The notes under the pieces are model-generated. The model saw only the letters and a program-made list of their open reading frames with translations, was not told the origin of the DNA and ran no database searches. Source: a virus. From it: a DNA stretch of 64,000 bases. Positions 11,263-64,000 of this stretch are shown here, piece after piece. Position numbers and translations under genes: made by a program. Within the stretch, counting starts at the first letter, position 1. The number at the start of each line of letters is the position of its first letter. The stretch covers positions 11,279 to 75,278 of the IMG/VR virus record IMGVR_UViG_3300027788_000008; one strand, 5' to 3'.

Positions 11263-11288
11263 AATACATAATACAAAGGCAGAGAAAT

Positions 11289-47388: not shown

Positions 47389-48729
47389 ATGGAAATTAAC
47401 TACGAAAATCTGGTCGCCAAATGGGCACCAGTATTAAACGAAGAGTCAGCTGTAGCCATTACTGACCGCCACCGCCGCAATGTAACTGCTTGTATTCTTG
47501 AGAACCAAGAACGCGCTATGATTGCTGAAAGTGGACAGTCTCAGTTTATGACTGAAGTTGCTGCTAACGTCACAACATCTGCTGCTAAGTGGGATCCAGT
47601 ATTGATCTCTCTCGTTCGTCGCGCTATGCCTAACCTTATGGCATATGACATCTGTGGTGTTCAACCAATGACTGGACCAACTGGTCTGATCTTTGCAATG
47701 AAGTCTAAGTATAAGACTACTGCTGGCGGCGCAACTGCCACTGATGAAGCATTGTTCGGCGAAGCAGTGACTCCATACTCTGGCGACACTGCTGTCACAC
47801 AAACTGCTGACGGTTCTGGTCTTGACGGTCTCGACGACACTGGCACCGTAAACACCAGTATCGATGACGAGCGAGCTGGTCCAACTGTTGGTGGTGGTAT
47901 GACCACTGCAACTGCTGAAGCACTCGGCAACACTGGTAATGCATTCTCTGAAATGGGTTTCACCATTGAGAAAGCAACAGTTGAAGCAAAGTCACGTGCC
48001 CTGAAAGCAGAGTACACCATTGAACTAGCACAAGACCTGAAAGCAATTCACGGTCTTGACGCTGAAACAGAACTTGCTAACATCTTGTCTGTTGAAATCC
48101 TTGCCGAAATCAACCGTGAAGTTATCCGTACTGTAAACAGTCAAGCAAAGACTGGTGCTAGCACTGCTAACACCGCACTTAACGGTGTATTCAATCTCGA
48201 CACTGATGCTGACGGGCGTTGGTCTGCTGAGAAGTTCAAAGGTCTGATGGTACAACTTGACCGCGAATGTAATGCAATCGCGAAAGAAACTCGTCGTGGT
48301 AAAGGAAATGTTGCTATCGTCTCTTCTGACGTTGCTACTGCTCTTGTTGCTGCTGGCGTGCTGGACTACGCTCCCGCAATCTCTGCTAACCTGCAAGTAG
48401 ACGATACTGGTAACACCTTTGCTGGTGTTATTAACGGTCGTATTCGTGTATACATCGATCCATATGCTACTGTCGACTATGTTACTGTCGGGTACAAAGG
48501 AACAAACGCTTATGATGCAGGTATCTTCTACTGCCCATACGTTCCTCTGCAAATGGTTCGTGCCGTTGGCGAGAATGACTTCCAACCACGTATCGGGTTC
48601 AAGACTCGTTATGGTATGGCAGCTAACCCGTTTGCTGGTACAGGCACTTCAGGTGTGGGCGCAGCAACTGCTAAGACCAACCAGTACTATAGGATCTTCC
48701 GAGTTGACGCTCTGATGGTTTCTACATAA
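47389..48729 (+). CDS. g23: Major capsid protein gp23
   Basis: LVRRAMPNLMAYDICGVQPMTGPTGLIFAM, KSRALKAEYTIELAQDLKAIHGLDAE, FYCPYVPL, FQPRIGFKTRYG. Confidence 0.98.
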   Translation: MEINYENLVAKWAPVLNEESAVAITDRHRRNVTACILENQERAMIAESGQSQFMTEVAANVTTSAAKWDPVLISLVRRAMPNLMAYDICGVQPMTGPTGLIFAMKSKYKTTAGGATATDEALFGEAVTPYSGDTAVTQTADGSGLDGLDDTGTVNTSIDDERAGPTVGGGMTTATAEALGNTGNAFSEMGFTIEKATVEAKSRALKAEYTIELAQDLKAIHGLDAETELANILSVEILAEINREVIRTVNSQAKTGASTANTALNGVFNLDTDADGRWSAEKFKGLMVQLDRECNAIAKETRRGKGNVAIVSSDVATALVAAGVLDYAPAISANLQVDDTGNTFAGVINGRIRVYIDPYATVDYVTVGYKGTNAYDAGIFYCPYVPLQMVRAVGENDFQPRIGFKTRYGMAANPFAGTGTSGVGAATAKTNQYYRIFRVDALMVST

Positions 48730-49978: not shown

Positions 49979-51442
49979 ATGAACAATTTAACAGTCCAAT
50001 TGCTGAATCACTCTATGATGGTTGTGAAGTGCGATGCTGGAGTACGAGCGGAGTTGTCCGAGTATTTCTCATTCTTTGTTCCTGGACATAAGTTCATGCC
50101 GAGTTTCAAGCGCAAGCAATGGGACGGAAAGATTAGATTGTTTAATGCCATTACCAGTGAACTTAATGTCGGATTGTATGTCAAACTCTGTAAGTTTGCT
50201 GCTGACAGACACTACCACTTACAGATGGAGCATAGCGACTATGGTCTACCAACCGCAAGAAACAAGGTAAACCACCAACAACTGGTTGCATCACAAGCAT
50301 TGTGGGGCATGCCCTTTCCTCCTAGAGACTATCAGTACGAAGCAATCACGCATGGCATATCGAATAAGCGTTGCATCCTGTTATCCCCAACTGGTTCTGG
50401 TAAGTCGTTTATTATATATAATCTTATGCGTTGGTATCTTGATGGACATGACAAAGCAGTCCTTGTCGTTGTTCCAACGACCTCCCTCGTGGAGCAGATG
50501 TACAAAGACTTCTCTGACTATGGCATGGATGTAGATACCGATGTACATAAAATTTACTCAGGCAAGGACAAGAAGACCACTAAGAGGGTCATTGTCACAA
50601 CTTGGCAGTCAGTGTATCGCCTTGGTCCAGATTGGTTTAATGCCTTTGGTTGTGTGTTTGGAGACGAGTGTCATTTATTTAAGGCAAAATCTTTGGCAAC
50701 AATGATGAATAAGTGCAGCGAAGCAGAGTATCGTTTCGGGACCACGGGCACGCTGGATGGAACCCAGTGTAACAAGTTGGTACTCGAGGGACTCTTTGGT
50801 CCAACAAAGCGAGTGACGTTCACCAGAGACCTACAGGACAACGGAACACTCGCTCGATTGAAGATAGACATGCTGATGCTTGACTATCCTTTGCAGCTGC
50901 GTAAATTTAACAAGGATCGGACATATCAGGAAGAAGTAGATTTCCTTGTGGGGTATGAACCAAGGAACAGATTGATACGCAACATTGCTTTAACACAAAC
51001 CGGAAACACTCTTGTACTGTACCAGTTCGTCGAGAAACACGGTGAAGTGTTGCATAAAATGATTAAGGAGAAAAATGATCAGGTGTTCTATGTTCATGGT
51101 GGCACGGATGTTTCTGACAGAGAAGCAATTCGTGGAATTGTTGAGCGTAGTGAAGGTGCCATCATTGTTGCCTCAATGGGAACATTTAGCACGGGAATTA
51201 ACATCAAGAATCTGCACAATATTGTATTTGCCTCCCCATCAAAGTCGCAGGTCAAAGTGTTGCAGGCAATAGGAAGAGGTTTACGCAAAGCAGAAAATGG
51301 ACAGGATACGAAATTGTTCGACCTTGCTGATGATTTGTCAGTTGAGTCCAAGAAGAATTTCACCCTAAAGCATTCGGAAGAGAGAGTTAAAATGTATAAT
51401 ACGGAAAAGTTTAAATTCGAAATACACAAGGTGGTGTTATGA
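49979..51442 (+). CDS. uvsW: SF2 helicase UvsW
   Basis: WDGKIRLF, SPTGSGKS, DECH, GTTGT, FSTGINI, QAIGRGLR. Confidence 0.96.
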   Translation: MNNLTVQLLNHSMMVVKCDAGVRAELSEYFSFFVPGHKFMPSFKRKQWDGKIRLFNAITSELNVGLYVKLCKFAADRHYHLQMEHSDYGLPTARNKVNHQQLVASQALWGMPFPPRDYQYEAITHGISNKRCILLSPTGSGKSFIIYNLMRWYLDGHDKAVLVVVPTTSLVEQMYKDFSDYGMDVDTDVHKIYSGKDKKTTKRVIVTTWQSVYRLGPDWFNAFGCVFGDECHLFKAKSLATMMNKCSEAEYRFGTTGTLDGTQCNKLVLEGLFGPTKRVTFTRDLQDNGTLARLKIDMLMLDYPLQLRKFNKDRTYQEEVDFLVGYEPRNRLIRNIALTQTGNTLVLYQFVEKHGEVLHKMIKEKNDQVFYVHGGTDVSDREAIRGIVERSEGAIIVASMGTFSTGINIKNLHNIVFASPSKSQVKVLQAIGRGLRKAENGQDTKLFDLADDLSVESKKNFTLKHSEERVKMYNTEKFKFEIHKVVL

Positions 51443-51861
51443 GTAAAATAAATTTGGAAGAAGACAAAATACTACAGATAAAATTGATGACAGGACAAGA
51501 GATACTTGCCCAGTCTATCGAAGTTGATACAGAAGATTCATTCGTTGTCAGTCACGCACTAGAAATGGTTGCTGTTGAGTACGAAGATGACGAGTTGCAG
51601 TTGAACAAGTCTTATTACATCCTGCGACCTTTTATTTCTTATCCATCAGCACTTGACGTTGTTGTTTCTATCAACCCAACCGCTATTGTGTGCATCAACA
51701 AACCGAGCAAGAAGGTTATTGAGCAATATACAAGTTCCTGTGATACTATACAAGAGATGCTACTTGATGAAGTTCCTGAAGAGGCAGTACCACACAATAC
51801 ACCAAATGGGAATGTCCTCACCTTTCCTCCCACCCCACCTAAATTATTGACCGAAGATTGA
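51439..51861 (+). CDS. Hypothetical protein between uvsW and gp55 (possible Sm-like fold)
   Basis: IKLMTGQEILA start; synteny typical of marine T4-like phages. Confidence 0.55.
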   Translation: MSKINLEEDKILQIKLMTGQEILAQSIEVDTEDSFVVSHALEMVAVEYEDDELQLNKSYYILRPFISYPSALDVVVSINPTAIVCINKPSKKVIEQYTSSCDTIQEMLLDEVPEEAVPHNTPNGNVLTFPPTPPKLLTED

Positions 51862-51886
51862 CATTACACACTACTTGATGTAGAAT
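51858..51886 (+). promoter_or_regulatory. Sigma70 promoter TTGACA-N17-TAGAAT upstream of gp55
   Basis: Perfect -35, 17-bp spacer, 5/6 -10. Confidence 0.8.
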
Positions 51887-51919: not shown

Positions 51920-52507
51920 ATGAAACCTAGCGAACGCCCACATTATGTGAACAATGCACAATTCAGTCAAGCAGTCGTAGACCATGTTAAGTCTGTTCGT
52001 GACTCTGAGGGCACAGGCGAGGAAGCACCGCAAATGCCCACCTATGTTGCTACCTGTTTTCTTAAGATAGCAGAAGGTCTCTCACATAAGTCTAACTTTG
52101 TGCGATACACCTATCGAGAAGAGATGGTAATGGATGCGGTTGAGAACTGCCTTCGTGCATGTAAGAACTATGACATAGAAGCAGCAACCCGCAAGGGCAA
52201 ACCAAATGCATTTGGGTATTTCACCCAGATATCTTGGTATGCGTTCTTACGTCGAATTAAAAAAGAACAACGCCAACAAGATGTCAAGATGAACTATATT
52301 GCTGAGTCTGGATTGGACGAGTTCGTGGTAGATCCTGGTGAAGACCCGCAGGTTGCCAAGGCAGTACAATCGTTTGTCGACAACCTTCGTCTTCGAATTG
52401 ATGAGGTTAAAAATAAAGACACTAAGATAAAGGAATATAAGAAGAAGACTGCAATAAAGCGCACAGTGCGTGTAGACTCTGACCTTTCTAGTTTCTTAGA
52501 GGGATAG
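51920..52507 (+). CDS. g55: Late transcription sigma factor gp55
   Basis: HYVNN..F, LKIAEGLSHKSNF..YTYREEMVMDAVENC, NAFGYFTQI..YAFLRRIKKE. Confidence 0.96.
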   Translation: MKPSERPHYVNNAQFSQAVVDHVKSVRDSEGTGEEAPQMPTYVATCFLKIAEGLSHKSNFVRYTYREEMVMDAVENCLRACKNYDIEAATRKGKPNAFGYFTQISWYAFLRRIKKEQRQQDVKMNYIAESGLDEFVVDPGEDPQVAKAVQSFVDNLRLRIDEVKNKDTKIKEYKKKTAIKRTVRVDSDLSSFLEG

Positions 52508-52509
52508 AT

Positions 52510-53571
52510 ATGAAGATCGCAATCCTTAACGATACCCACTGTGGTATTCGTAATAGCAGCGATATATTTATCGAGTCTCAGGAACGTTTTTATAACGAGG
52601 TTTTCTTCCCATACCTGAATGAACACAACATCACAAACGTATTGCATCTCGGGGATTATTATGAGAATCGCCGATTCATAAACTTCAAGGCACTCAACAG
52701 CAATCGTAAAGTGTTTCTTGAGCGTTTGCGTTCTGATGGTATAAACATGGATATAATTCCAGGAAACCACGATACCTATTATAAGAACACAAACAACCTC
52801 AACTCCCTGAAGGAGTTGCTTGGGCACTATATGAATGAGGTCAACATTGTACAGGACTGTTCTGTCCTCGACTATGATGGCATGAAAGTTGGACTTGTTC
52901 CTTGGATCTGCCCTGACAACGAAAAAGAGTGCTTAGACTTCCTAGTCAACTGTAAAGCAGATGTGATTGGTGGCCACTTCGAACTAAACGGGTTTGACAT
53001 GCTGCGTGGTGTGCCCTGTACTCATGGTATGTCTGCCGATAACCTCCACAGATTCGAACTGGTGTTGTCTGGACACTACCATGTGAAGTCTAACCAAGGC
53101 AACATCCACTACCTTGGTTCTCAGATGGAGTTCTTCTGGAATGACGCACACGATGAAAAATTCTTTCACGTCCTTGACACAGAAACAAGAGAACTACTCC
53201 CTGTACGAAACCCACTGACGTTGTTCCAACGGGTTTATTATGACGATACTAAGAATGACTATGGCGAGTTTGACACTTCGCGTTTTGATAAACAGTTTGT
53301 AAAGGTTGTTGTCATCAAGAAGTCAGACACATTCACGTTCGATCGCTTCATTGATCGCATTATGCAACGTGATGTATATGACCTCAAGATACAAGAGGAC
53401 TTCTCTGAGTTTACTGGAGAGAACGTCTCTGACGAAGGACTTGAAGTAGAAGACACCTCTTCTTTGCTCGGTGCTTATGTTGATAATGTAGAGACTGTCC
53501 TCGACAAAGAAAGAATTAAGTCTGAAGTGTTAGACCTTATGTCAGAAGCACAAATACAGGAAGTGGTGTAA
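52510..53571 (+). CDS. g47: Recombination endonuclease subunit gp47 (Mre11/SbcD-like)
   Basis: DTHCG, LGDYYE, GNHD, GHFE, SGHYH. Confidence 0.95.
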   Translation: MKIAILNDTHCGIRNSSDIFIESQERFYNEVFFPYLNEHNITNVLHLGDYYENRRFINFKALNSNRKVFLERLRSDGINMDIIPGNHDTYYKNTNNLNSLKELLGHYMNEVNIVQDCSVLDYDGMKVGLVPWICPDNEKECLDFLVNCKADVIGGHFELNGFDMLRGVPCTHGMSADNLHRFELVLSGHYHVKSNQGNIHYLGSQMEFFWNDAHDEKFFHVLDTETRELLPVRNPLTLFQRVYYDDTKNDYGEFDTSRFDKQFVKVVVIKKSDTFTFDRFIDRIMQRDVYDLKIQEDFSEFTGENVSDEGLEVEDTSSLLGAYVDNVETVLDKERIKSEVLDLMSEAQIQEVV

Positions 53572-53576
53572 AACAC

Positions 53577-55295
53577 TTGATAATATTTGAAACGATTCGT
53601 TATAAAAATTTCCTTTCTACTGGGGATAATTGGACAGAGATATCCCTCAATAAAAGTGAACATACCCTAGTAGTTGGACAGAATGGTTCTGGTAAGTCCA
53701 CTATGCTTGATGCCATATCTTATGCTTTATTTGGTAAGTCCCACCGAAGTATAAGTAAAGCACAGTTGGTCAATTCAATCAACAACAAAGCAATGCAGGT
53801 AGAGGTTGAATTCAACATCGGTGCAAAGAAGTACAAGGTTGTGCGTGGCATAAAACCCGTCAAGTTCGAGATCTATGTTGACGGTACGATGATCAACCAA
53901 AACTCTCACAACAAAGAATACCAGAAAGTTCTAGAATCTAATATTCTAAAGTTGAACCACAAGACCTTCCATCAAGTGGTTGTGCTCGGTTCTTCTTCTT
54001 TCGTACCATTTATGCAGTTGTCTGCTCTGAATCGTCGTGATGTGATTGAAGACCTACTGGATATTGGTGTGTTCTCGAAGATGAACATGCTGTTGAGAGA
54101 ACGTAACGCCACTCTGAAAGAACGTGTCAATAATGTCTATCATGCAATAGCGATCAATGAAACAAAGACAGACGCGCAGAAGAAATACATCCGCGATATT
54201 TCCAAGTTAAATCATGATGCTAAAAAGCAGAAGGACAACGACATCGCAGATACCACCAAGGAAATAGAGAAACTGGTTGGGGTCAATACAGAAAACCAAA
54301 GCAAGGCGAATGATATTAGTCTGGAGATAACTCCACTATTGGAAGAGCACCGCAAGCAACTCGCCCGACTTAATGGTTTCGAGTCAGAGTTCAATACAAA
54401 GATCAAAGCACTGGTCAAGACTGCTAAATTCTATGAGGTGAATGATCACTGTGAGACCTGCGACCAAGACATCGATGTTTTCCTGAAGGAAAGTAAACTG
54501 AAAGAAGCAAAAGAGCAAGCAGCAGAGTTACAGTCTGCTGGTGCAGAGGTTGCAAAGTCCCGTGATGAGGTGACTGGTACTATTATAGAGTACGAGTTGA
54601 AGATGAAGGAGGTTCAATCTCTGTTAACGAATGTACAAGGCAATCTTCAGACTATCGCGACACACAATAAGAACATAGAGAAAACTCGCGCTGATATCGA
54701 ATCCCTCAGCAACGGTCAATCTGACCTCGCATCAGCAAATGATGAGTTTGACATTCTGCAAAAAGAGCAGTATAGGTTGATGGATCAACGTAACACCATG
54801 AATGACCAAGCAGCATACAACACTGTTATCTTTGAGATGCTGAAAGACAGCGGAATCAAAACCAAAGTGATCAAGCAGTACCTGCCAGTCATCAATAAGT
54901 TGGTGAATCAGTACCTCGCTATTCTCGACTTCTATGTCCACTTTGACCTTGATGAAAAGTTCGAAGAAACTATCCGTTCCCGTCATAGGGATTCATTCTC
55001 ATACGCATCATTCTCCGAGGGAGAGAAGCAGCGTATCGATTTGGCATTGTTGTTCACGTGGAGGCAGATTGCCAAGATGAAGAACAGCATCAGTACCAAC
55101 TTATTGATACTGGACGAAACCTTTGACTCATCTTTGGATGAAGCAGGTATCGACAACCTTATGAAGATCATTCATACTCTCGGTAATGACACGAACGTGT
55201 TTATTATCTCGCACAAAGGAGAGATACTCGATGGCAAGTTTGAAGCAAAGATAGAGTTTGTCAAGAATAAGAATTTCTCTCAGATAAAGAAGTAG
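53577..55295 (+). CDS. g46: Recombination ATPase subunit gp46 (Rad50/SbcC-like)
   Basis: GQNGSGKST, CETC zinc hook, FSEGEK, LILDE, ISH. TTG start. Confidence 0.96.
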   Translation: MIIFETIRYKNFLSTGDNWTEISLNKSEHTLVVGQNGSGKSTMLDAISYALFGKSHRSISKAQLVNSINNKAMQVEVEFNIGAKKYKVVRGIKPVKFEIYVDGTMINQNSHNKEYQKVLESNILKLNHKTFHQVVVLGSSSFVPFMQLSALNRRDVIEDLLDIGVFSKMNMLLRERNATLKERVNNVYHAIAINETKTDAQKKYIRDISKLNHDAKKQKDNDIADTTKEIEKLVGVNTENQSKANDISLEITPLLEEHRKQLARLNGFESEFNTKIKALVKTAKFYEVNDHCETCDQDIDVFLKESKLKEAKEQAAELQSAGAEVAKSRDEVTGTIIEYELKMKEVQSLLTNVQGNLQTIATHNKNIEKTRADIESLSNGQSDLASANDEFDILQKEQYRLMDQRNTMNDQAAYNTVIFEMLKDSGIKTKVIKQYLPVINKLVNQYLAILDFYVHFDLDEKFEETIRSRHRDSFSYASFSEGEKQRIDLALLFTWRQIAKMKNSISTNLLILDETFDSSLDEAGIDNLMKIIHTLGNDTNVFIISHKGEILDGKFEAKIEFVKNKNFSQIKK

Positions 55296-55639: not shown

Positions 55640-55668
55640 TTGACATCTCAATCCCTTTCGGTTAAAAT
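55640..55668 (+). promoter_or_regulatory. Sigma70 promoter TTGACA-N17-TAAAAT driving the DNA-modification cluster
   Basis: Perfect -35, 17-bp spacer, 5/6 -10; SD GAGG before the ATG at 55692. Confidence 0.82.
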
Positions 55669-55691
55669 AGTATTCTACTTGAGGAAATAAT

Positions 55692-57089
55692 ATGGAAACA
55701 CTAACAATAGGTGGTCGCTCTTGGCAAAAGAGCATTGGTGATCAGGGGCAAGATGTATATGTCGCCTTGTTCATCGAAGACTCCGAAGCACTCAAAGGTC
55801 AATATCCAGAAGAAAGTCACTTTGACATTGTCGTTGACCAAGACGCAGACTTCTACATGCCCTCTACTGGCGTTGAAGATGAAGGACTGAACGAAGATCG
55901 AATTGCATTCAAATTCCGCAAAAATATTTTTACGCAAGAAGAACAAGACGGTGCATATGCTGGTCTGTTCGATGCTGCTATTGAATCAAACAACAGAGGT
56001 ATGGCAGCGGGACCACGCGAAGAGTCTCAGGGCAATCGCGACTGGGTCACGCAGTACCAGATCAATGTTCTGACTTGGTTCGAAAACGGACAACCACCAA
56101 ACATTGATGGGTCTGAACCTCTTGCTGAGTTTGCCGCCATACCAGATGACGACGAGAATCGTGGTGGTGTTTGGTTGCGCACCAAAGTCGAACCAGAGTT
56201 TGGTACATACACTGACTTCTTTCCACTTCTACTGACTAAACTGCGAGTGATGACACTTGGGGAAGCAAAAGAATATGTTGCAAAGATACGCAAAGAATTT
56301 ATTTCAGATACTATGTATGCTACTGCTATTTGGTCTGGGATTGCTGGGTTCTATGGTCGTTACCCTCGTATACCTTATGGTCGTGCTACTGCATTCACTG
56401 ATCATAACCGCGAAGTATTTGAGAAATGCTATCCGTTTGCACGTCGACTAGACCAAACTTTTGTTGACCTGCTACCAGTTCGCCACGCACGTCAGAAGTT
56501 GCGCGCTGACAGTATGGATCCAAAGTTTCTAATTGGTGAAGACACCACGTTCACCACCATCACAGTCAACACGACAACCAAAGATCGCAATGCGCGTATG
56601 GCATGTCACCGTGACTCTGGTTCTTTGAACGAAGGTTTCAGCAACCTGACTGTCATCAGTGATGGCAAGAAAGACTGGAAGGGTGGTATGCTAGTATGCC
56701 CTGAAGTTCGTGCTGCTATCAATATTCGTCCAGGTGATCTACTGTTGGTTGACAACATGCGTATCATGCATGCTAATACTCCAATTGAGGCACCTGACTC
56801 TGGCGAAGATGACTTGATGCGTATGTCACTTGTGTTCTACTTCCGTGAAGATATGTTGAAGTTGGGTACATGGGAATACGAGCACCTGCGTCGAGCATAT
56901 GTTGACTCACGTCGACTGAACGAAGAACACAAACTCTGGCGACCATACTGGAACGGTGTGTCACCGAGCATGTGGGACGACAATGAATGGTACGACTGGT
57001 TGATAGACAACGGTGGTGAGGAGATGACTCGAAAGTATCACCCCGAAGCATTTGATGTTGCTAGCACCCTTGATGAATTCTTTGGATAG
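55692..57089 (+). CDS. TET/JBP-family 2OG-Fe(II) dioxygenase (5-methylpyrimidine oxidase)
   Basis: FTTITVN...ACHRD.G...GFSNL...GG.LV.PE..A...RPGDLLLVD...MHANT...RMSLVFYFRE, i.e. HxD...H...R. Confidence 0.85.
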   Translation: METLTIGGRSWQKSIGDQGQDVYVALFIEDSEALKGQYPEESHFDIVVDQDADFYMPSTGVEDEGLNEDRIAFKFRKNIFTQEEQDGAYAGLFDAAIESNNRGMAAGPREESQGNRDWVTQYQINVLTWFENGQPPNIDGSEPLAEFAAIPDDDENRGGVWLRTKVEPEFGTYTDFFPLLLTKLRVMTLGEAKEYVAKIRKEFISDTMYATAIWSGIAGFYGRYPRIPYGRATAFTDHNREVFEKCYPFARRLDQTFVDLLPVRHARQKLRADSMDPKFLIGEDTTFTTITVNTTTKDRNARMACHRDSGSLNEGFSNLTVISDGKKDWKGGMLVCPEVRAAINIRPGDLLLVDNMRIMHANTPIEAPDSGEDDLMRMSLVFYFREDMLKLGTWEYEHLRRAYVDSRRLNEEHKLWRPYWNGVSPSMWDDNEWYDWLIDNGGEEMTRKYHPEAFDVASTLDEFFG

Positions 57090-57097
57090 GAAATATT

Positions 57098-57370
57098 ATG
57101 ATCGATTACAAGTACAATGAAGAAGCACTGATCAAAGAACTCCAAGAGTATGTGGACGTCACTTATGGACAACACTACTCGCAGGATAAAGTGCAGACAA
57201 CTGAGTTTGTCATTGATGCAGGACACGGTGAAGGTTTCTGTCTCGGAAACGTCATCAAGTACACCCAACGATATGGTAAGAAAGAAGGCAAGAACAGGAA
57301 GGACTTGTTGAAAGTGTTGCACTATGGTTTGATTGCCTTGCATGTTCACGATCTGGAAGCAGGTGAATGA
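57098..57370 (+). CDS. DUF3310-like protein (T7 gp1.7 nucleotide kinase-related)
   Basis: HY...Q..E.I...G.GFCLGNVIKY..RYGKK.G...DLLK..HY. Confidence 0.75.
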   Translation: MIDYKYNEEALIKELQEYVDVTYGQHYSQDKVQTTEFVIDAGHGEGFCLGNVIKYTQRYGKKEGKNRKDLLKVLHYGLIALHVHDLEAGE

Positions 57371-57519
57371 AGAAGATCTGGTACAAGCAAAATAAAAACG
57401 GTACAGTGACATTCTATGAAGACACAAACCGCAAAACAGGTACATACAGCAACCGCAAAGCAAACTTTGCATATCCCAAATTCATATATGAGTGGATAGA
57501 AATACCATGTGCGGAGTAA
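57367..57519 (+). CDS. 50-aa hypothetical protein (below ORF-track cutoff)
   Basis: Translates as MKKIWYKQNKNGTVTFYEDTNRKTGTYSNRKANFAYPKFIYEWIEIPCAE. ATGA overlap upstream; overlaps the GATase start. Confidence 0.55.
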   Translation: MKKIWYKQNKNGTVTFYEDTNRKTGTYSNRKANFAYPKFIYEWIEIPCAE

Positions 57520-58190
57520 TTGGCGTACACCTGCCTGAAGTTCGCGCAGTGCACGATGCGCGGCTCGCTCTGGTCGAGAATCTATTTCTACAGAGCATGA
57601 TTCGTGGCAAGCATGCCACGGGAGTTACCTTTCTAAAACAAGGCAAACTCACCACAATCAAAGAAGGCATCAGTGCCGACAAGTTCATGGAGAAGCACAA
57701 TGTTGCTGACTGGGTTGATGGTGACTCACTCACGCTGATTGGTCACATTCGATACTCTACCTCTGACCTGCGACACAACCAACCATTCCAAGGTCGTGAG
57801 ATGGCAATTGCGCACAACGGTGTTATCTCCCAAGACCCAGATGTTTGGGAATACGAAACAGAAACCCAAAACGACTCTGAGTTGATACTACGATGCATCG
57901 AGGCAGGAGACACTCCTCTCGAGGCGTATCGCGAACGTTCTATGGCAGTGACCGCTATTGATGTGGATGGTAATCTGACAGGGTGGCGCAACCATGAGCG
58001 TCCACTGTGGATGGCGACTGACATAGGTGGGTTGATCTTTGCATCTACTTCGGATATAATAGAGAGATCTGGCATGGGGAAAGCAGTGAAATGCGATCCG
58101 ATGGTTAGATACATATATAATGACTACAGTGGACTGGTCGAAGACCGCACTCACTTTTCAGAAAACGATATGTTGGCAGATTTGCAATGA
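57507..58190 (+). CDS. Stand-alone class II (Ntn) glutamine amidotransferase
   Basis: Start at ATG 57507 gives MCGVIG (Cys1 nucleophile), plus RGKHATG, GHIRYST, NQPF, HNG, NDSE. Confidence 0.88.
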   Translation: MCGVIGVHLPEVRAVHDARLALVENLFLQSMIRGKHATGVTFLKQGKLTTIKEGISADKFMEKHNVADWVDGDSLTLIGHIRYSTSDLRHNQPFQGREMAIAHNGVISQDPDVWEYETETQNDSELILRCIEAGDTPLEAYRERSMAVTAIDVDGNLTGWRNHERPLWMATDIGGLIFASTSDIIERSGMGKAVKCDPMVRYIYNDYSGLVEDRTHFSENDMLADLQ

Positions 58191-58834
58191 TCACACGGTA
58201 CAACCAAGAGCAAGTTGAGAAACTGATTGCGGAACAACCTGAAGGAACTAACACCAAGTTCCTCAAGTCTTCGCACAACCTGTGGTTTCGATTTAAGAAT
58301 TATACCAAGAACCCACCGTTTGTGTTGCTCGATGGTGAAGAACCAGTTGCTCTGGTCTTCATCACATTCAGTGCACGATCAAAGTATGCCAACCTATATG
58401 AGATTGTTACGCTTGAAGGCAAAGAAGGTAATGGATACGCTTCCATTGTATACTGGGACGTGATGGCAGAAGCATACAAGCAGGGTATGCAGCGACTCAA
58501 GATGTCATGTACTCCATCGTCAGTGACTTGGCACAAACGCAACGGCACCATCTTTTGGGCAGTTGACCCCAGTGGTTCCCTGCGCTGTGACGTGCCTTTA
58601 TTTCCAAACAAGCACGAGCAGTTGACGTTCCGTGAGTTGGCAATCAAAGACAATGAAGTTGCCCTGCCACCGCAAAAGGTTGCTGATAAACTCAGAGATG
58701 AATGCATTGAACTGCACAAGTTTGGTGTCAAGAAAACAGAGAAGGTCGAGACTGCCATTGAAGCAGTGGGCGACTACTGGTTCCGTGAAGCATTATTTGA
58801 ACCAACCCATTTCTCTCTTGATGCATTTCTATGA
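58187..58834 (+). CDS. GNAT-family acyltransferase
   Basis: NLYEIVTLEGKEGNGYAS resembles GNAT motif A ((Q/R)xxGx(G/A)); downstream 'SVTWHKRNG'. ATGA-coupled on both sides. Confidence 0.7.
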   Translation: MITRYNQEQVEKLIAEQPEGTNTKFLKSSHNLWFRFKNYTKNPPFVLLDGEEPVALVFITFSARSKYANLYEIVTLEGKEGNGYASIVYWDVMAEAYKQGMQRLKMSCTPSSVTWHKRNGTIFWAVDPSGSLRCDVPLFPNKHEQLTFRELAIKDNEVALPPQKVADKLRDECIELHKFGVKKTEKVETAIEAVGDYWFREALFEPTHFSLDAFL

Positions 58835-59826
58835 CAGACAGCAAGGAAATATTCACTCAGTGGTTTGGTCGTGGTCTTGAAATCGAAGACTGTGATCCAT
58901 CTCTGTATCTACAGAATTATTTCTTTGACCGTTTCGAGTACAACACAGAGCAGCGTCTGTGGATCTCTTGGATATATGGCACTACCTACTTTTGGCCAAC
59001 TTCATATGTTGTTTGGAACGAATTTCCAGATATGGAGTTGGTAGGTCTGGAGCGTTTACGCGATTGGAACAACACCAACTACAAGCGTTTGCGTTACCAG
59101 ACAGACACCAAGTGGAACAAAGGTCACCTGCCTGCACAGTTTGAGTCGTACAGGGACTATGTTGGTGACCGTACACAGCACGAAGCACTGACTGCCAACT
59201 TTGTTGGTGACCCTGTCAAGGACTTCTACACTCTGTGGGATACAGTCAACACATGGCATAAGTTTGGCAGGTACACCACTTGGTTCTACATACAGACACT
59301 CAAGCAGACGTGTGGCATTGATGTTGACGTTGACAGTCTGTGGTTCCATGACCGTAATGGATCCAAGTCGCATCGCAATGGTATGTGCTATGCCATGGAC
59401 AAACCTGAGTGGGTCGACTCAAAGAAGAACAATGTGAAACTCGACGCCACCCAGATTGACTTCCTTGAAGCAAATGGCAGGGAGATACTACAAGAAGTGA
59501 AGTTGCGGTATCCGCACGTTGCTGACAAGGCAGACTTCTTTGCTATGGAAACCAGTCTGTGTTCCTTCAAGAAATTATATCGACGCAGTCGTGGTCGCTA
59601 CCTTGGTTTCTACATTGACCGTCAGGCAGAAGAGATCAAGAAAGCAGAAGCAGATAACTGGGAAGGCATCGACTGGACACCACTGTGGGATGCCCGCAAG
59701 GAATCACTGGAGTCAAAGTGGTTGCTGGATACAGTCGACCCTGACCTATACAACCTGTTTCTTGACACAGGTAATTTTGAACCAGACGATCGCACTGTTG
59801 GCGGTCTTGAGGCATTCTTTGTATGA
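58831..59826 (+). CDS. Amino acid:DNA transferase (aGPT-PPlase/AADT family, HhH-glycosylase-like fold)
   Basis: D.DP, QRLW.SW.YG.TY, FGRYTTWFYIQTL, SHRNGM, METSLCSFKK, RYLGFYIDR. Confidence 0.8.
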   Translation: MTDSKEIFTQWFGRGLEIEDCDPSLYLQNYFFDRFEYNTEQRLWISWIYGTTYFWPTSYVVWNEFPDMELVGLERLRDWNNTNYKRLRYQTDTKWNKGHLPAQFESYRDYVGDRTQHEALTANFVGDPVKDFYTLWDTVNTWHKFGRYTTWFYIQTLKQTCGIDVDVDSLWFHDRNGSKSHRNGMCYAMDKPEWVDSKKNNVKLDATQIDFLEANGREILQEVKLRYPHVADKADFFAMETSLCSFKKLYRRSRGRYLGFYIDRQAEEIKKAEADNWEGIDWTPLWDARKESLESKWLLDTVDPDLYNLFLDTGNFEPDDRTVGGLEAFFV

Positions 59827-60374
59827 AATTGATCTACCTAATTGGGATTCCTGGAACGGGCAAGTCCACCATCATGAAAGAGTTTATGAAGACTCAAGGT
59901 GAGTGGACGCATGACCGTCCAATTGACCTGCTTGATACTCACGTGGCAGGGAACGTCCGTGTCCTTGGCAAATATTCCGAAGAGGAAACATTCAGTGGCA
60001 CTGACCGATTGAGTATGGCAGTGGCACCCAAAGCAGTTGAGTGGATCTTGGACAAACCAGATGAGTTCATAATTGGTGAAGGTGACCGTCTTAACAATGC
60101 GGGTTTCTTCAGAGCAGCAGGTGACGACCTCACCATTATCCACCTGACCGTATCGGACGCAGAACGTGAGCGCAGATACAGGCAGCGTGGTTCCGACCAG
60201 TCTGAGAAATTCATCCAGACTACACGCACCAAATGCAAGAATATCCTCGAGAAGTTTGGCGACCAGCACACGCTGTTTGGTACTGAACTCGGTTGCGTGG
60301 TTGAGTTCCCCCATGAATCACCAAATGACACACAGATCGTTGTCGATTATCTGGTATCCTCGCTAACTTGTTGA
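59823..60374 (+). CDS. P-loop kinase of the type that accompanies AADT genes (candidate 5-hydroxymethylpyrimidine-DNA kinase)
   Basis: LIGIPGTGKST, LGKY...FSGTDRLSMAV, GEGDRL, R..RGS.Q.EKF. Confidence 0.8.
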   Translation: MKLIYLIGIPGTGKSTIMKEFMKTQGEWTHDRPIDLLDTHVAGNVRVLGKYSEEETFSGTDRLSMAVAPKAVEWILDKPDEFIIGEGDRLNNAGFFRAAGDDLTIIHLTVSDAERERRYRQRGSDQSEKFIQTTRTKCKNILEKFGDQHTLFGTELGCVVEFPHESPNDTQIVVDYLVSSLTC

Positions 60375-60613: not shown

Positions 60614-60690
60614 GTTGTTGATTTCATTCAGTTTTCTCGAACTTGTCCTTGTACCCTATTTGCGGGATAATAGGTGTTCTGATTGAGGAG
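60611..60690 (+). promoter_or_regulatory. Repeated early-promoter cassette, copy 1: IHF-consensus site + TTGTCC-N17-GATAAT + SD
   Basis: TAAGTTGTTGATT 60611..60623, -35 at 60643..60648, -10 at 60666..60671. Confidence 0.8.
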
Positions 60691-61006: not shown

Positions 61007-63289
61007 ATGTATATGAAAGCAGAACACGGAAATAACGTCCTAGCAAAACTACTCGCTGCTGAGAATATAACAGTAGTGCAGGAGAACTGTAAGACTGCAT
61101 CATTTAACGTCCGTGACCGTATCCTGACCCTGCCTATGTGGTCTGATATGTCCAAAGATACCGAAGACCACCTGACTGGACACGAAGTTGGTCACGCACT
61201 GTTTACTCCAGAAGAAGGTTGGCATGACGCTGTATGTGATGCTGGTCCAGGTTACAAATCATTCCTCAATGTTGTAGAAGATGCACGCATTGAGAAACTA
61301 ATCCAGCGCAAATTTCCTGGACTTCGCACATCATTTATTCGATCATACCGTGACCTGCTCGCTGCTGGTTTCTTTGGCAAAAACATCGAACAGATCAATA
61401 AGACGGGACTGATTGACCGTATCAATACATACTTCAAATGTGGTTCCTCTATCGGTGTCCAGTTTGCCCGTGACGAGCAGCAGTGGATCGCCAAGGTTGG
61501 CGGCACTGAGACTTGGGAAGAAGTTGTTGAAGTCACTGACGAGTTGTTTGCCTTCTGCAAAAAGCAGAAAGAAGAACAACAGAAACAAGACGCAGAAGAC
61601 GACCAGCAAGCACAAGAAGATGGCGACGATGAGTCAGAAGATGACCTGAGTGGCGAAGACGAAGATGGCGAAACATCTGACTGGGACTTGAGTGATCTTC
61701 CAGAAGATGGTGAGGGTGAAGGTGAAGATGGCGATCCTACTTCCGATGACGCTGGTGGTGAAGAAGAAGAAGAGTCAGACGAAGAAGGCGAAGATGACGC
61801 CAAAGAAAGTGGCGAAACTGGCGGCAAATCTTCTGCTGACGAACCACGGTCTGAGACAGACGAAGCACTGCGTGACGCTATTGACCAGCAACATGCACCC
61901 AATGCTGATCGTCAGGTATACAACCTGAACCTGCCAGCACACGGTCTCTTTGAGAACCAATTCTACGGATACAAGACACTCCTGCGTGAATTGACCACTG
62001 GTGTTCTTCTACACGAGACTCCTGAAGAACACGCTGCGAAGATCAGCGACACACCCGATGAGTATGAAATTTACAGACGCAAAGAACAATTACAAAACCG
62101 TGGCATATTATTCGAAGCAGGTACAGAGCAATACAACAAGTGGTATGCCACTGCCAAGAAGTCTATCGCGCTGATGGTCAAAGAATTCGAAATGAAGAAG
62201 TCTGCTACACAGCATGCACGTGCTAAAATATCCAAGACTGGTACTCTTGATACACTCAAGATGAACCACTACCGAACAACAGACGACATCTTCAAGAAAG
62301 TCACTACAGTACCTGATGGCAAGAACCACGGTTTCCTCATGATACTTGATCTGTCTTCTTCTATGTGGGAGCAGATGTTTCCAGTAGTGAAGCAGACTCT
62401 GTTGATGGTAAACTTCTGTCGCGCTATCGGTGTTCCGTTCCGTGTATATGGTTTCACTGATAACCTGTCAGGTGGTCAATCACGTGACTGGGATGACATG
62501 CCATCGGATACTATCCTCACTGATCCACGTCTGCGTATGTTGGAGATCTTCAATGAGAGAATGACCAAGACTGAGATGACTACAATGGCAAAATACCTCA
62601 TTGGTGGTGCATACTCGCAGCAACGGAATAATCGTGTTGGGTACAACCCTGCACGTATATTCTCTTTGGGTGGTACTCCACTTGACAGCGCAATCATTGC
62701 TATGATGCCTGTTGCTGTTGCCTTCCGCAAGCAGTATAAACTGGACAAGTTGAACACTATCCTGTTGACTGATGGTCAATCGCACCCAGCGTATGTAAAC
62801 AATGGTGCTGCAGGCAACACTCGCCTGAACTGGTTGATGCGCAATGATTCATCTGTAGTGACTATCCGTAGTCCCATCAACCAGAAAGTATATCGCGTCT
62901 TGAAGACTCAACGTGGTGGCGACAATGCTACTGCTCGTCTGCTCGAAATATTCAAGGACGTGACTGGTTCGGTTATGCTCGGGTACTTTGTAGTTGATGG
63001 TGGTCGCAGTAGTGTACTGAACGCATGCTGCTACTTGGCAGGAACATACATCGACCGTGAACCATTATGGAAAACAATCAAGAGTGGTGCACACGCAGTC
63101 GTGCCAACTCCAGGTTATGACAAGATGTATGTATTGTGGGGCAAAAACCTCCAAGAGAAAACGTCCAAGATGGATGAGGTCGTTGCTGGTGCAAAGAAAG
63201 GTGCCATATCCCGCGCATTCGCCTCCGCTGCTACGAGCAGCAAGCAGACGCGCAAACTGCTACAGGATATAGTGTCTCAGATAGCGTAA
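61007..63289 (+). CDS. HEXXH metallopeptidase-like domain + acidic linker + VWA domain (CobT-like partner of an AAA+ ATPase)
   Basis: GHEVGHALFTP, NVVEDARIE, long D/E linker, MIDAS DLSSSM, GGTPL, LTDG. Confidence 0.85.
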   Translation: MYMKAEHGNNVLAKLLAAENITVVQENCKTASFNVRDRILTLPMWSDMSKDTEDHLTGHEVGHALFTPEEGWHDAVCDAGPGYKSFLNVVEDARIEKLIQRKFPGLRTSFIRSYRDLLAAGFFGKNIEQINKTGLIDRINTYFKCGSSIGVQFARDEQQWIAKVGGTETWEEVVEVTDELFAFCKKQKEEQQKQDAEDDQQAQEDGDDESEDDLSGEDEDGETSDWDLSDLPEDGEGEGEDGDPTSDDAGGEEEEESDEEGEDDAKESGETGGKSSADEPRSETDEALRDAIDQQHAPNADRQVYNLNLPAHGLFENQFYGYKTLLRELTTGVLLHETPEEHAAKISDTPDEYEIYRRKEQLQNRGILFEAGTEQYNKWYATAKKSIALMVKEFEMKKSATQHARAKISKTGTLDTLKMNHYRTTDDIFKKVTTVPDGKNHGFLMILDLSSSMWEQMFPVVKQTLLMVNFCRAIGVPFRVYGFTDNLSGGQSRDWDDMPSDTILTDPRLRMLEIFNERMTKTEMTTMAKYLIGGAYSQQRNNRVGYNPARIFSLGGTPLDSAIIAMMPVAVAFRKQYKLDKLNTILLTDGQSHPAYVNNGAAGNTRLNWLMRNDSSVVTIRSPINQKVYRVLKTQRGGDNATARLLEIFKDVTGSVMLGYFVVDGGRSSVLNACCYLAGTYIDREPLWKTIKSGAHAVVPTPGYDKMYVLWGKNLQEKTSKMDEVVAGAKKGAISRAFASAATSSKQTRKLLQDIVSQIA

Positions 63290-63362
63290 GTTGTTGATTC
63301 TAAGGGGTTTTTTAGAACTTGTTCTTGGACCCTGATTGAGCGATAATATAGTCTGAGTTGAG
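63287..63362 (+). promoter_or_regulatory. Repeated early-promoter cassette, copy 3: IHF-consensus site + TTGTTC-N17-GATAAT
   Basis: TAAGTTGTTGATT 63287..63299, -35 at 63319..63324, -10 at 63342..63347. Confidence 0.82.
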
Positions 63363-63396
63363 TGATTTAGAAGTTTAATTGAAGAGGAAATACATT

Positions 63397-64000
63397 ATGA
63401 GCAAAGCAAAATTATTAGTCGAGTTGTTGACCGCCAAATTTGGTGATGAACCTCGCACCCTATCAGGTGCTGAGATCAAGTCATTCGCCAAGGACAATGA
63501 CATCAACTCGCTGTATCGCGTACTGAACGCGAACAACTCCGCTGGTGATGGTTTGTACCATTTCCCTCCTGTGGGCAAGTCCAAACCTGCTGCTGTCCGA
63601 GTGACCGCACCAGTCGTTGCGCGTGTTGTGGCACCAGTTGCTGCTCCCACTCCCGTTGGTCCAGCAGTCTCGCTGACTGCTCAGTCCACTGGGTTCACCG
63701 ACAATCTTGTACCGAACAAGGACAATATGTATGTCCCCTTCGGGCACTTCAAGACAGTACAGACCATTGTCAAATCAGGCATGTTCTATCCCCTGTTCAT
63801 CAGTGGTCTGTCGGGCAATGGTAAGACTTACATGGTTGAGCAGGTACACGCTGCCAGCAAGTTGCCTGTTATACGTGTCAACCTCACCGAAGAAACTGAC
63901 GAAGACGACCTCATCGGTGGTTTCCGACTGGTCGATGGTGAGACCAAATTCTTCAAAGGTCCAGTGATCAAAGCAATGGAGCAGGGTGCTACTTTGCTGC
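63397..64000 (+). CDS. CobS/MoxR-like AAA+ ATPase (3' truncated by window edge; not in ORF track)
   Basis: Reads MSKAKLLVELL...NLVP.KD..YVPFG...FISGLSGNGKT...RVNLTEETDEDDLIGGFRLVDGET....GPVIKAMEQGA, with Walker A. Confidence 0.9.
   Translation, partial: MSKAKLLVELLTAKFGDEPRTLSGAEIKSFAKDNDINSLYRVLNANNSAGDGLYHFPPVGKSKPAAVRVTAPVVARVVAPVAAPTPVGPAVSLTAQSTGFTDNLVPNKDNMYVPFGHFKTVQTIVKSGMFYPLFISGLSGNGKTYMVEQVHAASKLPVIRVNLTEETDEDDLIGGFRLVDGETKFFKGPVIKAMEQGATLL

Follow-up and report, generated by a model that had tools for sequence, protein, structure and literature searches.

The window analysed here is a stretch of 64,000 nucleotides (nt), the last 64 kb of the linear, 75,278-bp viral contig IMGVR_UViG_3300027788_000008 from IMG/VR (positions 11,279 to 75,278 of that record). 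Between positions 55,640 and 60,374 of the window lies a cluster of seven co-oriented genes (Table 1) that probably constitutes a module for post-replicative hypermodification of thymidine in a marine T4-like myovirus, expressed from its own sigma70-type (early-type) promoter. In the route that we propose, a TET/JBP-family dioxygenase (TET) would hydroxylate thymine in DNA to 5-hydroxymethyl-deoxyuridine (5hmdU; the base is 5hmU), a P-loop kinase of the Ploopntkinase3 family would phosphorylate this hydroxyl on the polymer, an amino acid:DNA transferase (AADT) would displace the phosphate by a nitrogen nucleophile, and a GNAT-fold acyltransferase would acylate the new amine. The TET would take the place of the hydroxymethylase of known pathways, the order of the steps being otherwise as in those pathways, and the likely benefit is protection of the phage DNA from host nucleases. 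We infer every chemical step, the substrate, the step order and the product from protein families and catalytic residues, predicted folds, co-occurrence of the genes, and the lack of an alternative source of 5-hydroxymethylpyrimidine in an 85%-complete relative.

The product of the first gene is predicted to be a thymine-in-DNA hydroxylase that converts T to 5hmdU. Its residues 231-386 match the Tet_JBP model PF12851 with 53.8 bits (cut-off 34.9), and the protein matches PHROG 24024 with an E value of 3e-135. About 1,900 homologues were detectable, and PF12851 was present in 120 of 120 TET homologues among the matches listed. An earlier reading of this DNA, made from the letters and their open reading frames (ORFs) and referred to as the sequence-only reading, had described an intact HRD...H...R signature. 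This is borne out by the alignment of 33 homologues with 62-78% identity to the window protein, in which H306-R307-D308, H360 and R377 are invariant. H306, D308 and H360 form the iron triad, and R377 is the arginine that binds 2-oxoglutarate (2OG).

The predicted fold leads to the same family. When the AlphaFold model of the TET (pLDDT 74) was compared with 48,161 PDB representatives by VIA-align, the four best structural matches were TET enzymes: CMD1 (Z 14.9, root-mean-square deviation (rmsd) 4.1, 268 aligned residues), TET2 (Z 14.9, rmsd 3.9, 247 aligned), NgTET1 (Z 14.3, rmsd 4.3, 227 aligned) and CcTet (Z 14.1, rmsd 3.4, 209 aligned). The next structural group, the AlkB proteins, followed at a Z of about 10. 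A Foldseek comparison gave a probability of 1.00. Since the alignments to TET structures cover residues 1-426, the long N-terminal half belongs to an expanded TET fold, not to a fused ParB or other domain. A ParB fused to the N-terminus of the TET had been considered as a candidate, and was rejected for this reason. A feature search of the Atlas with residues 1-225 gave a weak pointer (0.82), to TET-like clusters only. The search of PDB sequences with the TET profile returned only the C-terminal 2OG motif of clavaminate synthases, with marginal E-values, and the assignment therefore relies on Pfam and fold.

The two enzymes that would act next were also recognised correctly by the sequence-only reading. 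The predicted 5-hmdU DNA kinase matches PF18751 with an E value of 2e-17 (63.7 bits, cut-off 27), and its Walker A motif GIPGTGKST is intact. The AADT (formerly aGPT-Pplase) matches PF18724 with an E value of 1e-23 (84.7 bits, cut-off 26.2). Its best matches in cultured phages are from ViI-like phages and are about 30% identical to it across about 80% of its length, and a search of PDB sequences with its profile found no solved structure. In characterised systems the kinase 5-HMUDK phosphorylates 5hmdU in the polymer, and AADT puts glycine, serine, glutamate or putrescine, through their amine or hydroxyl, in the place of the phosphate; this chemistry has been reconstituted for M6, ViI and PaMx11 (PMC8989533).

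The GNAT protein was slightly below the Pfam cut-off (19.8 versus 20.7), and its claimed identity is confirmed by its fold. The AlphaFold model (pLDDT 93.6) matched 429 PDB chains at E <= 0.001, every one of the top matches was a GNAT N-acetyltransferase (Foldseek probability 1.00), and the acyl-CoA-binding motif E-G-x-G-Y-A is invariant. A tblastn search for this GNAT in cultured phages gave no match. A precedent for its proposed role is gp48 of phage PaMx11, a GNAT that acetylates 5-aminomethyl-deoxyuridine (5-aminomethyl-dU; PMC8989533). No flavin adenine dinucleotide (FAD) or oxidoreductase domain was found in the seven cluster ORFs by Pfam search.

To see how these genes are linked elsewhere, we used the TET as probe, which yielded 80 distinct viral contigs with a TET 56-97% identical, and these were searched with the proteins of the window. 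The AADT, the kinase or both were present in the fetched flank of 46 of the 80 TET loci. Among the 23 loci having at least 5 kb on both sides, 14 carried TET, AADT and kinase together. The genes always lie on one strand, in at least five different orders. GATase-GNAT-AADT-TET-kinase was the commonest order (15 loci; GATase is a glutamine amidotransferase), and the order of the window, TET-GATase-GNAT-AADT-kinase, was found in 5 loci. Nine further loci show the order TET-GATase-...-AADT-kinase, with about 3 kb of other genes in the place of the GNAT; in L014, the only such locus scanned, this insert contains a weak match to amidoligases that is below the threshold, a GNAT other than that of the window, and a protein of 495 aa without family match. 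In 18 related loci the kinase starts no more than 40 nt from the TET stop codon. Judged from these neighbourhoods, TET, GATase, AADT and kinase make up the functional unit that is conserved, and the GNAT is a frequent tailoring gene. Of the seven-gene module that the sequence-only reading had proposed, all genes are real; a functional core of seven is not supported, DUF3310 and the 50-aa ORF being clade-restricted.

For the GATase of this unit, the assignment to class II stands, while the listed start, GTG 57492, has to be replaced: the start is most likely ATG 57507, because the N-terminus then becomes Met-Cys-Gly-Val, and Met-Cys is common to the orthologues. This pair was present in 33 of 33 orthologues, in two of them a few residues in, where the script had picked an upstream start codon. 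Residues C2, R82, N104, G105 and D123 are invariant as well, and we take them to correspond to the catalytic, oxyanion and glutamine-binding residues of GlmS and PurF. The protein has no fused synthase domain, and a sequence search of the PDB gave no match.

The occurrence of the GATase follows that of a certain type of AADT. Where the fetched flanks extend over both genes, a GATase accompanies each AADT of at least 43% identity, and in loci with TET, AADT and kinase in which the GATase was undetected, the AADTs are all in the range of 26-32% identity. By this distribution, the AADTs of this clade have the stand-alone GATase as an obligate companion. Complex prediction for GATase and AADT gave a score of 0.55 (best control 0.00), with agreement of at least 68% of contacts between runs and a partner pLDDT of at least 87. 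This is weak support: 58 of 80 solved complexes and 2 of 110 mismatched pairs reached the mark, but only 7 of the 80 solved complexes, and both passing mismatches, did so with a score of 0.60 or less.

A bare glutaminase domain with complete catalytic residues, no synthase domain and coupling to one AADT clade favours delivery of ammonia to the AADT. Our preferred sub-hypothesis is that the GATase hydrolyses glutamine and feeds ammonia to the AADT, which would yield 5-aminomethyl-dU, to be converted by the GNAT to an N-acyl (e.g., acetyl) aminomethyl-dU. The complete version, in which the GATase docks on the AADT, ammonia is the nucleophile, and TET, kinase, GATase and AADT together turn thymine in DNA into 5-aminomethyl-dU before acylation by the GNAT, is put forward tentatively and may well prove wrong. 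The GATase may alternatively be an amidohydrolase of the Ntn (N-terminal nucleophile) type, acting to trim a glutamine or gamma-glutamyl group that is tethered to DNA, or it may supply nitrogen to a different step.

Whether thymine or cytosine is the substrate of the TET depends on the other enzymes of the genome. We searched the contig for a hydroxymethylase or a C5-methyltransferase, and found no homologue of ThyA/hydroxymethylase or of C5-methyltransferases. The contig is estimated to be about 42% complete (CheckV), and from such a fragment it cannot be inferred that the cluster is self-contained, as had been proposed, or that the genome is free of a hydroxymethylase. More can be learned from a relative, IMGVR_UViG_3300027833_000015 (153.9 kb, 85% complete), which has a TET 96% identical and the same seven genes in the same order. 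This relative has no match to PF00303, PF00145 or PF02195 at E <= 1. A second relative, 55% complete, has no PF00303 match, and no PF00145 match at E <= 1. Both relatives have a gene for ThyX some 19 kb downstream of the TET (G001:C1:11544-12125 in locus L010 and G002:C1:8267-8860 in locus L009), with an E value of 6e-41 in the 85%-complete one; the equivalent position in the phage of the window is beyond the contig end. Since ordinary dTMP (thymidine monophosphate) is made, hydroxymethylase and cytosine methylase are lacking, and the TET is linked to a kinase and an AADT of the 5-hmdU type, thymine would be oxidised in DNA. Thymine in DNA is most simply the TET substrate.

This view has to be weighed against others. 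The kinase, AADT, GATase and GNAT could use pre-replicative 5hmdU provided by a hydroxymethylase whose gene lies in the part of the genome that is missing here, and the TET would then have a separate job, e.g., marking or damaging of host DNA, or regulation. All fully characterised thymidine hypermodifiers (PhiW-14, SP10, ViI, M6) indeed use a hydroxymethylase for deoxyuridine monophosphate (dUMP; PMC8989533), and the contig is 42% complete. We nevertheless consider this scheme, including the separate job of the TET, to be improbable: the 85%-complete relative lacks a PF00303 homologue and has ThyX, hence ordinary dTMP, and the linkage of TET, kinase and AADT survives several gene-order rearrangements, the kinase often abutting the TET.

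There is a similarly small chance that the TET oxidises 5-methylcytosine (5mC), the methyl group being added by the host or by an unsampled phage methylase, and that kinase and AADT derivatise the resulting 5-hydroxymethylcytosine (5hmC) to a hypermodified cytosine. For some contigs it has been proposed that P-loop kinases beside TETs phosphorylate TET-made 5hmC (Burke 2021, PMC8256090), the characterised phage TETs of clades A and B act on 5mC, and the genomes available here are incomplete. However, neither the contig nor the 85%- and 55%-complete relatives have a PF00145 match at E <= 1, the kinase and AADT families are characterised only on 5hmdU (PMC8989533), and a C5-methyltransferase occurs in only 6% of 5mYOX pathways (O'Toole 2026, PMC13229309). 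Finally, RNA is the substrate of some TET/JBP relatives and AlkB-like enzymes, and assays in E. coli found Clade C1 enzymes that lack ParB to be inactive (PMC13229309), but action of the module on RNA or tRNA, on free nucleotides or on host DNA only, or a catalytically silent TET with another role, is very unlikely given that none of the 33 homologues departs from the facial triad or from the arginine that binds 2OG, that the best structural matches are DNA-acting TETs, and that the families of the partner enzymes act on polymer DNA (PMC8989533).

Several points speak against the proposed module as a whole or in part. The phage is uncultured, and the module is predicted from its genes. With a contig of 42% and a best relative of 85% completeness, a hydroxymethylase or a C5-methyltransferase may be encoded in the unsampled part. 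The GATase/kinase/AADT-linked subclass of the 2026 paper needs a ParB partner, and none was found here: a PF02195 homologue was lacking at E <= 1 in the contig and in the two relatives (85% and 55% complete), and the seven cluster ORFs all belong to other families or are too small for ParB. Some ParBs escape Pfam and need structure searches (PMC13229309). Among Clade C1 enzymes without a ParB, some failed to act on either T or 5mC when present in E. coli (PMC8256090, PMC13229309). The characterised phage T-dioxygenases are compact, and the conserved Cys 280 of 5mYOX176 ends the region shared by both subclasses. The nucleophile of the AADT is unreadable from its sequence, and the nearest characterised relative (ViI-like, about 30% identity) uses serine. 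The proposed feeding of ammonia by the GATase is based on co-occurrence and a weak complex score.

The layout of the cluster is that of an operon. The sequence-only reading had listed seven co-oriented, tightly coupled ORFs behind a strong sigma70 promoter, and all of these elements were recovered: the seven ORFs are present on the + strand, and the first junction, a gap of 8 nt, is followed by overlaps of 4, 13, 4, 4 and 4 nt. The promoter is the best site of the region scan, with 11 of 12 consensus positions. Sites of this quality occur three times in the 64-kb window (0.63 expected), and 3 of 100 shuffles reach three. Five close relatives have TTGACA-N17-TATAAT or TAGAAT at this place, nearer to the consensus than the window's own copy, and also keep the GAGGAA ribosome-binding site. 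Another near-consensus sigma70-type promoter, TTGACA-N17-TAGAAT (51858-51886), is located directly upstream of the gene for the gp55-type late sigma factor. No terminator was found 3' of the kinase gene in the region scan. A promoter-like sequence, TTGTCC-N17-GATAAT, is located at 60643, downstream of the cluster; it was used as the downstream boundary of the operon, and likely marks the end of the cluster.

Table 1. Features of the cluster and of its T4-type neighbourhood (window positions).
Feature	Position	Strand	Basis or remark
Sigma70-type promoter TTGACA-N17-TAAAAT, with GAGGAA ribosome-binding site before the TET start codon	55640..55668	+	consensus scan
TET/JBP-family (5mYOX) Fe(II)/2OG dioxygenase, long 465-aa form	55692..57089	+	PF12851, residues and fold
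DUF3310 protein, 90 aa, accessory	57098..57370	+	PF11753, E 2.8e-13
Small ORF, 50 aa	57367..57519	+	clade-restricted, conserved frame
Stand-alone class II (Ntn) glutamine amidotransferase domain, 227 aa	57507..58190	+	GATase_6, E 6e-10
GNAT-fold acyltransferase, 215 aa, C-terminal helical extension	58187..58834	+	model and motif
Amino acid:DNA transferase (AADT, formerly aGPT-Pplase)	58831..59826	+	ADDT PF18724
P-loop kinase, Ploopntkinase3 family, predicted 5-hmdU DNA kinase	59823..60374	+	PF18751
Major head protein	47389-48729	+	T4-type hallmark neighbour
UvsW-type helicase	49979-51442	+	T4-type hallmark neighbour
gp55-type late sigma factor	51920-52507	+	T4-type hallmark neighbour
gp47/gp46 SbcD/SbcC-type nuclease	52510-55295	+	T4-type hallmark neighbour

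Two small genes of the cluster were considered as core parts and rejected, because no clade but the closest one (L004-L008) has them within the cluster. In other loci the DUF3310 gene lies elsewhere. DUF3310 also matches internal segments of PHROG families that are named nucleotide kinase (phrog_236, 4897, 1689, 2585 and others), so the domain is often fused to phage kinases, and the stand-alone protein may assist the kinase of the cluster. The 50-aa ORF had no family match in Pfam and PHROG profile searches. It was found by tblastn in 5 of 5 close contigs with 50-74% identity, and its motif-conserving frame is open in three of the six close sequences scanned, with in-frame lengths of 50, 54 and 57 aa. 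It probably encodes a real protein, in the closest clade only.

All large ORFs of the window are on the + strand, and the genes upstream of the cluster include T4-type hallmarks (Table 1). The capsid protein shares 57-64% identity with those of phage C48C1, Methylophilales phage Melnitz, the Pelagibacter phages Mosig and HTVC008M, and Stenotrophomonas phage DLP6. The 4.7-kb stretch of the cluster was found almost unchanged in marine and seawater metagenomes from many studies, and a megablast search of the cluster against cultured phages gave no match. From the hallmark neighbours, the capsid identities and the marine recurrence it follows that the cluster belongs to an uncultured marine T4-like myovirus, of which the contig is a fragment. 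Downstream of the cluster (61007-63999), a gene for a 760-aa protein of PHROG 459 (named peptidase) is followed by an AAA-ATPase-like gene of PHROG 249 (named porphyrin biosynthesis); the PHROG 459 gene is conserved beside the cluster in many related loci.

Routes of this kind have been described before. Lee et al. 2021 (NAR, PMC8989533, section 21, Fig. 2 sequences 22-25) presented contigs from IMG/VR2 and GOV2.0 in which TET_JBP lies beside 5-HMUDK and AADT. Like the window, these contigs are without a dUMP hydroxymethylase, and conversion of T to 5hmU in situ was predicted. The authors noted glutaminotransferase and amidoligase genes in the same gene pool; theirs is a prediction only, with no product and no role assigned to the GATase (PMC8989533). 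TET contigs with P-loop kinase and aGPT-PPlase were reported by Burke et al. 2021 (PMC8256090). O'Toole et al. 2026 (PNAS, PMC13229309) demonstrated phage T-dioxygenases and proved post-replicative oxidation of T for representatives. They found a ParB-dependent subclass of Clade C1 to be consistently linked with GATases, P-loop kinases and AADTs (PMC13229309), with the same Pfam models as in the window: PF13522/PF13537 for the GATase, PF18751 for the kinase and PF18724 for the AADT (preprint 10.1101/2025.08.14.668559). Unlike that subclass, the cluster of the window includes no ParB, and none was found in its contig or in the two relatives. Its TET is 465 aa long and its TET-fold elements extend over residues 1-426, while the enzymes of O'Toole et al. 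are compact by published description. The sequence-only reading had considered the route from T (or 5mC) via a 5-hydroxymethylpyrimidine and its phosphorylated form to an N-substituted, further tailored base as a pathway not known to be characterised. The route itself, from T via 5hmU and phospho-5hmU, has good comparative support from the linkage in 46 of 80 loci and from the 85%-complete relative, but the combination of TET, kinase and AADT is not new, having been published in the three papers named above.

Among the systems with known products, PaMx11, which makes 5-acetylaminomethyl-dU, is similar to the window in having kinase, AADT and a GNAT acetyltransferase in one operon (PMC8989533). 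By analogy, an N-acylated aminomethyl-dU is a plausible product here as well. In PaMx11, 5hmdU is made before replication, glycine is appended, and an FAD-dependent lyase exposes the amine (PMC8989533). The window, in contrast, has no FAD enzyme, a GATase in the place of the lyase, and a TET to supply the hydroxyl. With ViI and ViI-like phages, which contain 5-(2-aminoethoxy)methyl-dU, the window has the kinase-then-AADT logic in common; the dUMP hydroxymethylase, the serine nucleophile and the pyridoxal phosphate-dependent decarboxylase of ViI are not found in the window.

In base J synthesis by kinetoplastid JBP1/2 and a glucosyltransferase, a TET/JBP enzyme hydroxylates thymine in the first step, as proposed for the window. 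What follows is different: glycosylation in a eukaryotic, regulatory setting for base J, and phosphorylation and amination in a phage for the window. Loci in which the same phage TET is followed by glycosyltransferase cassettes are closer analogues of base J. In L029 (9419-13586), which is without the kinase-AADT cassette, the TET is followed by genes for a cytidylyltransferase, an NAD-epimerase, a GT1 glycosyltransferase, an uncharacterised protein and a UDP-galactopyranose mutase, and in the cultured phage C48C1 (L001:9416-11448) by genes for the same uncharacterised protein and UDP-galactopyranose mutase. The TET orthologues of both are 67-68% identical to the TET of the window. Such alternative sugar cassettes after the same TET fit a common 5-hydroxymethyl (5hmU) precursor that is decorated by different cassettes, and the gene content of the two loci suggests base-J-like glycosylated 5hmU, possibly with a furanose sugar.

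Two further cultured phages have TETs related to that of the window. In the T4-like Caulobacter phage Cr30 (KF301602), a TET with 38% identity is annotated as SNF2 DNA repair protein, and within 8 kb there are also an AADT (PF18724, E 1e-52) and a homologue of the kinase with 32% identity. Compared with the window, Cr30 has no GATase and no GNAT. The Cr30 locus (L003 7995-16888) also encodes a protein with a dATP/dGTP diphosphohydrolase N-domain (PF18909, E 5e-34) and an inositol-1-phosphate synthase, and contains a weak match to a TET-associated glycosyltransferase. Stenotrophomonas phage DLP6 (L002 7968-9314) has a TET orthologue with 48.5% identity in the same position after gp47/gp46, preceded by a nucleotidyltransferase gene. 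No AADT or kinase was detected in the 17-kb DLP6 locus. The DNA of DLP6 is listed as restriction-enzyme resistant in a review table (PMC8228603).

The cluster of the window is thus a further example of the described pairing of TET, kinase and AADT, and no new kind of system. What is distinct here is the absence of ParB, the 465-aa TET, the pairing of GATase and GNAT without the FAD lyase of PaMx11, and the marine T4-like myovirus that carries it. It represents a compact natural example of predicted TET-initiated thymidine hypermodification, a route already present in the literature. If the ammonia-fed route is true, the AADT would work in a mode, that of an ammonia:DNA transferase, which is so far undescribed. 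Neither glycine nor a flavin lyase would then be required for a PaMx11-like base, which would arise in a long TET lineage that is independent of ParB and common among marine T4-like phages, and the route would be a short enzymatic way to primary amines on DNA thymines. Cr30 and DLP6, as cultured phages with orthologous TETs, offer entry points, and Cr30 is a tractable model for TET-initiated hypermodification. Considering the recurrence of the cluster in marine metagenomes and the approximately 1,900 TET homologues, the DNA of ocean phages probably often carries the modification, which could introduce a bias into sequencing and into methods that rely on restriction.

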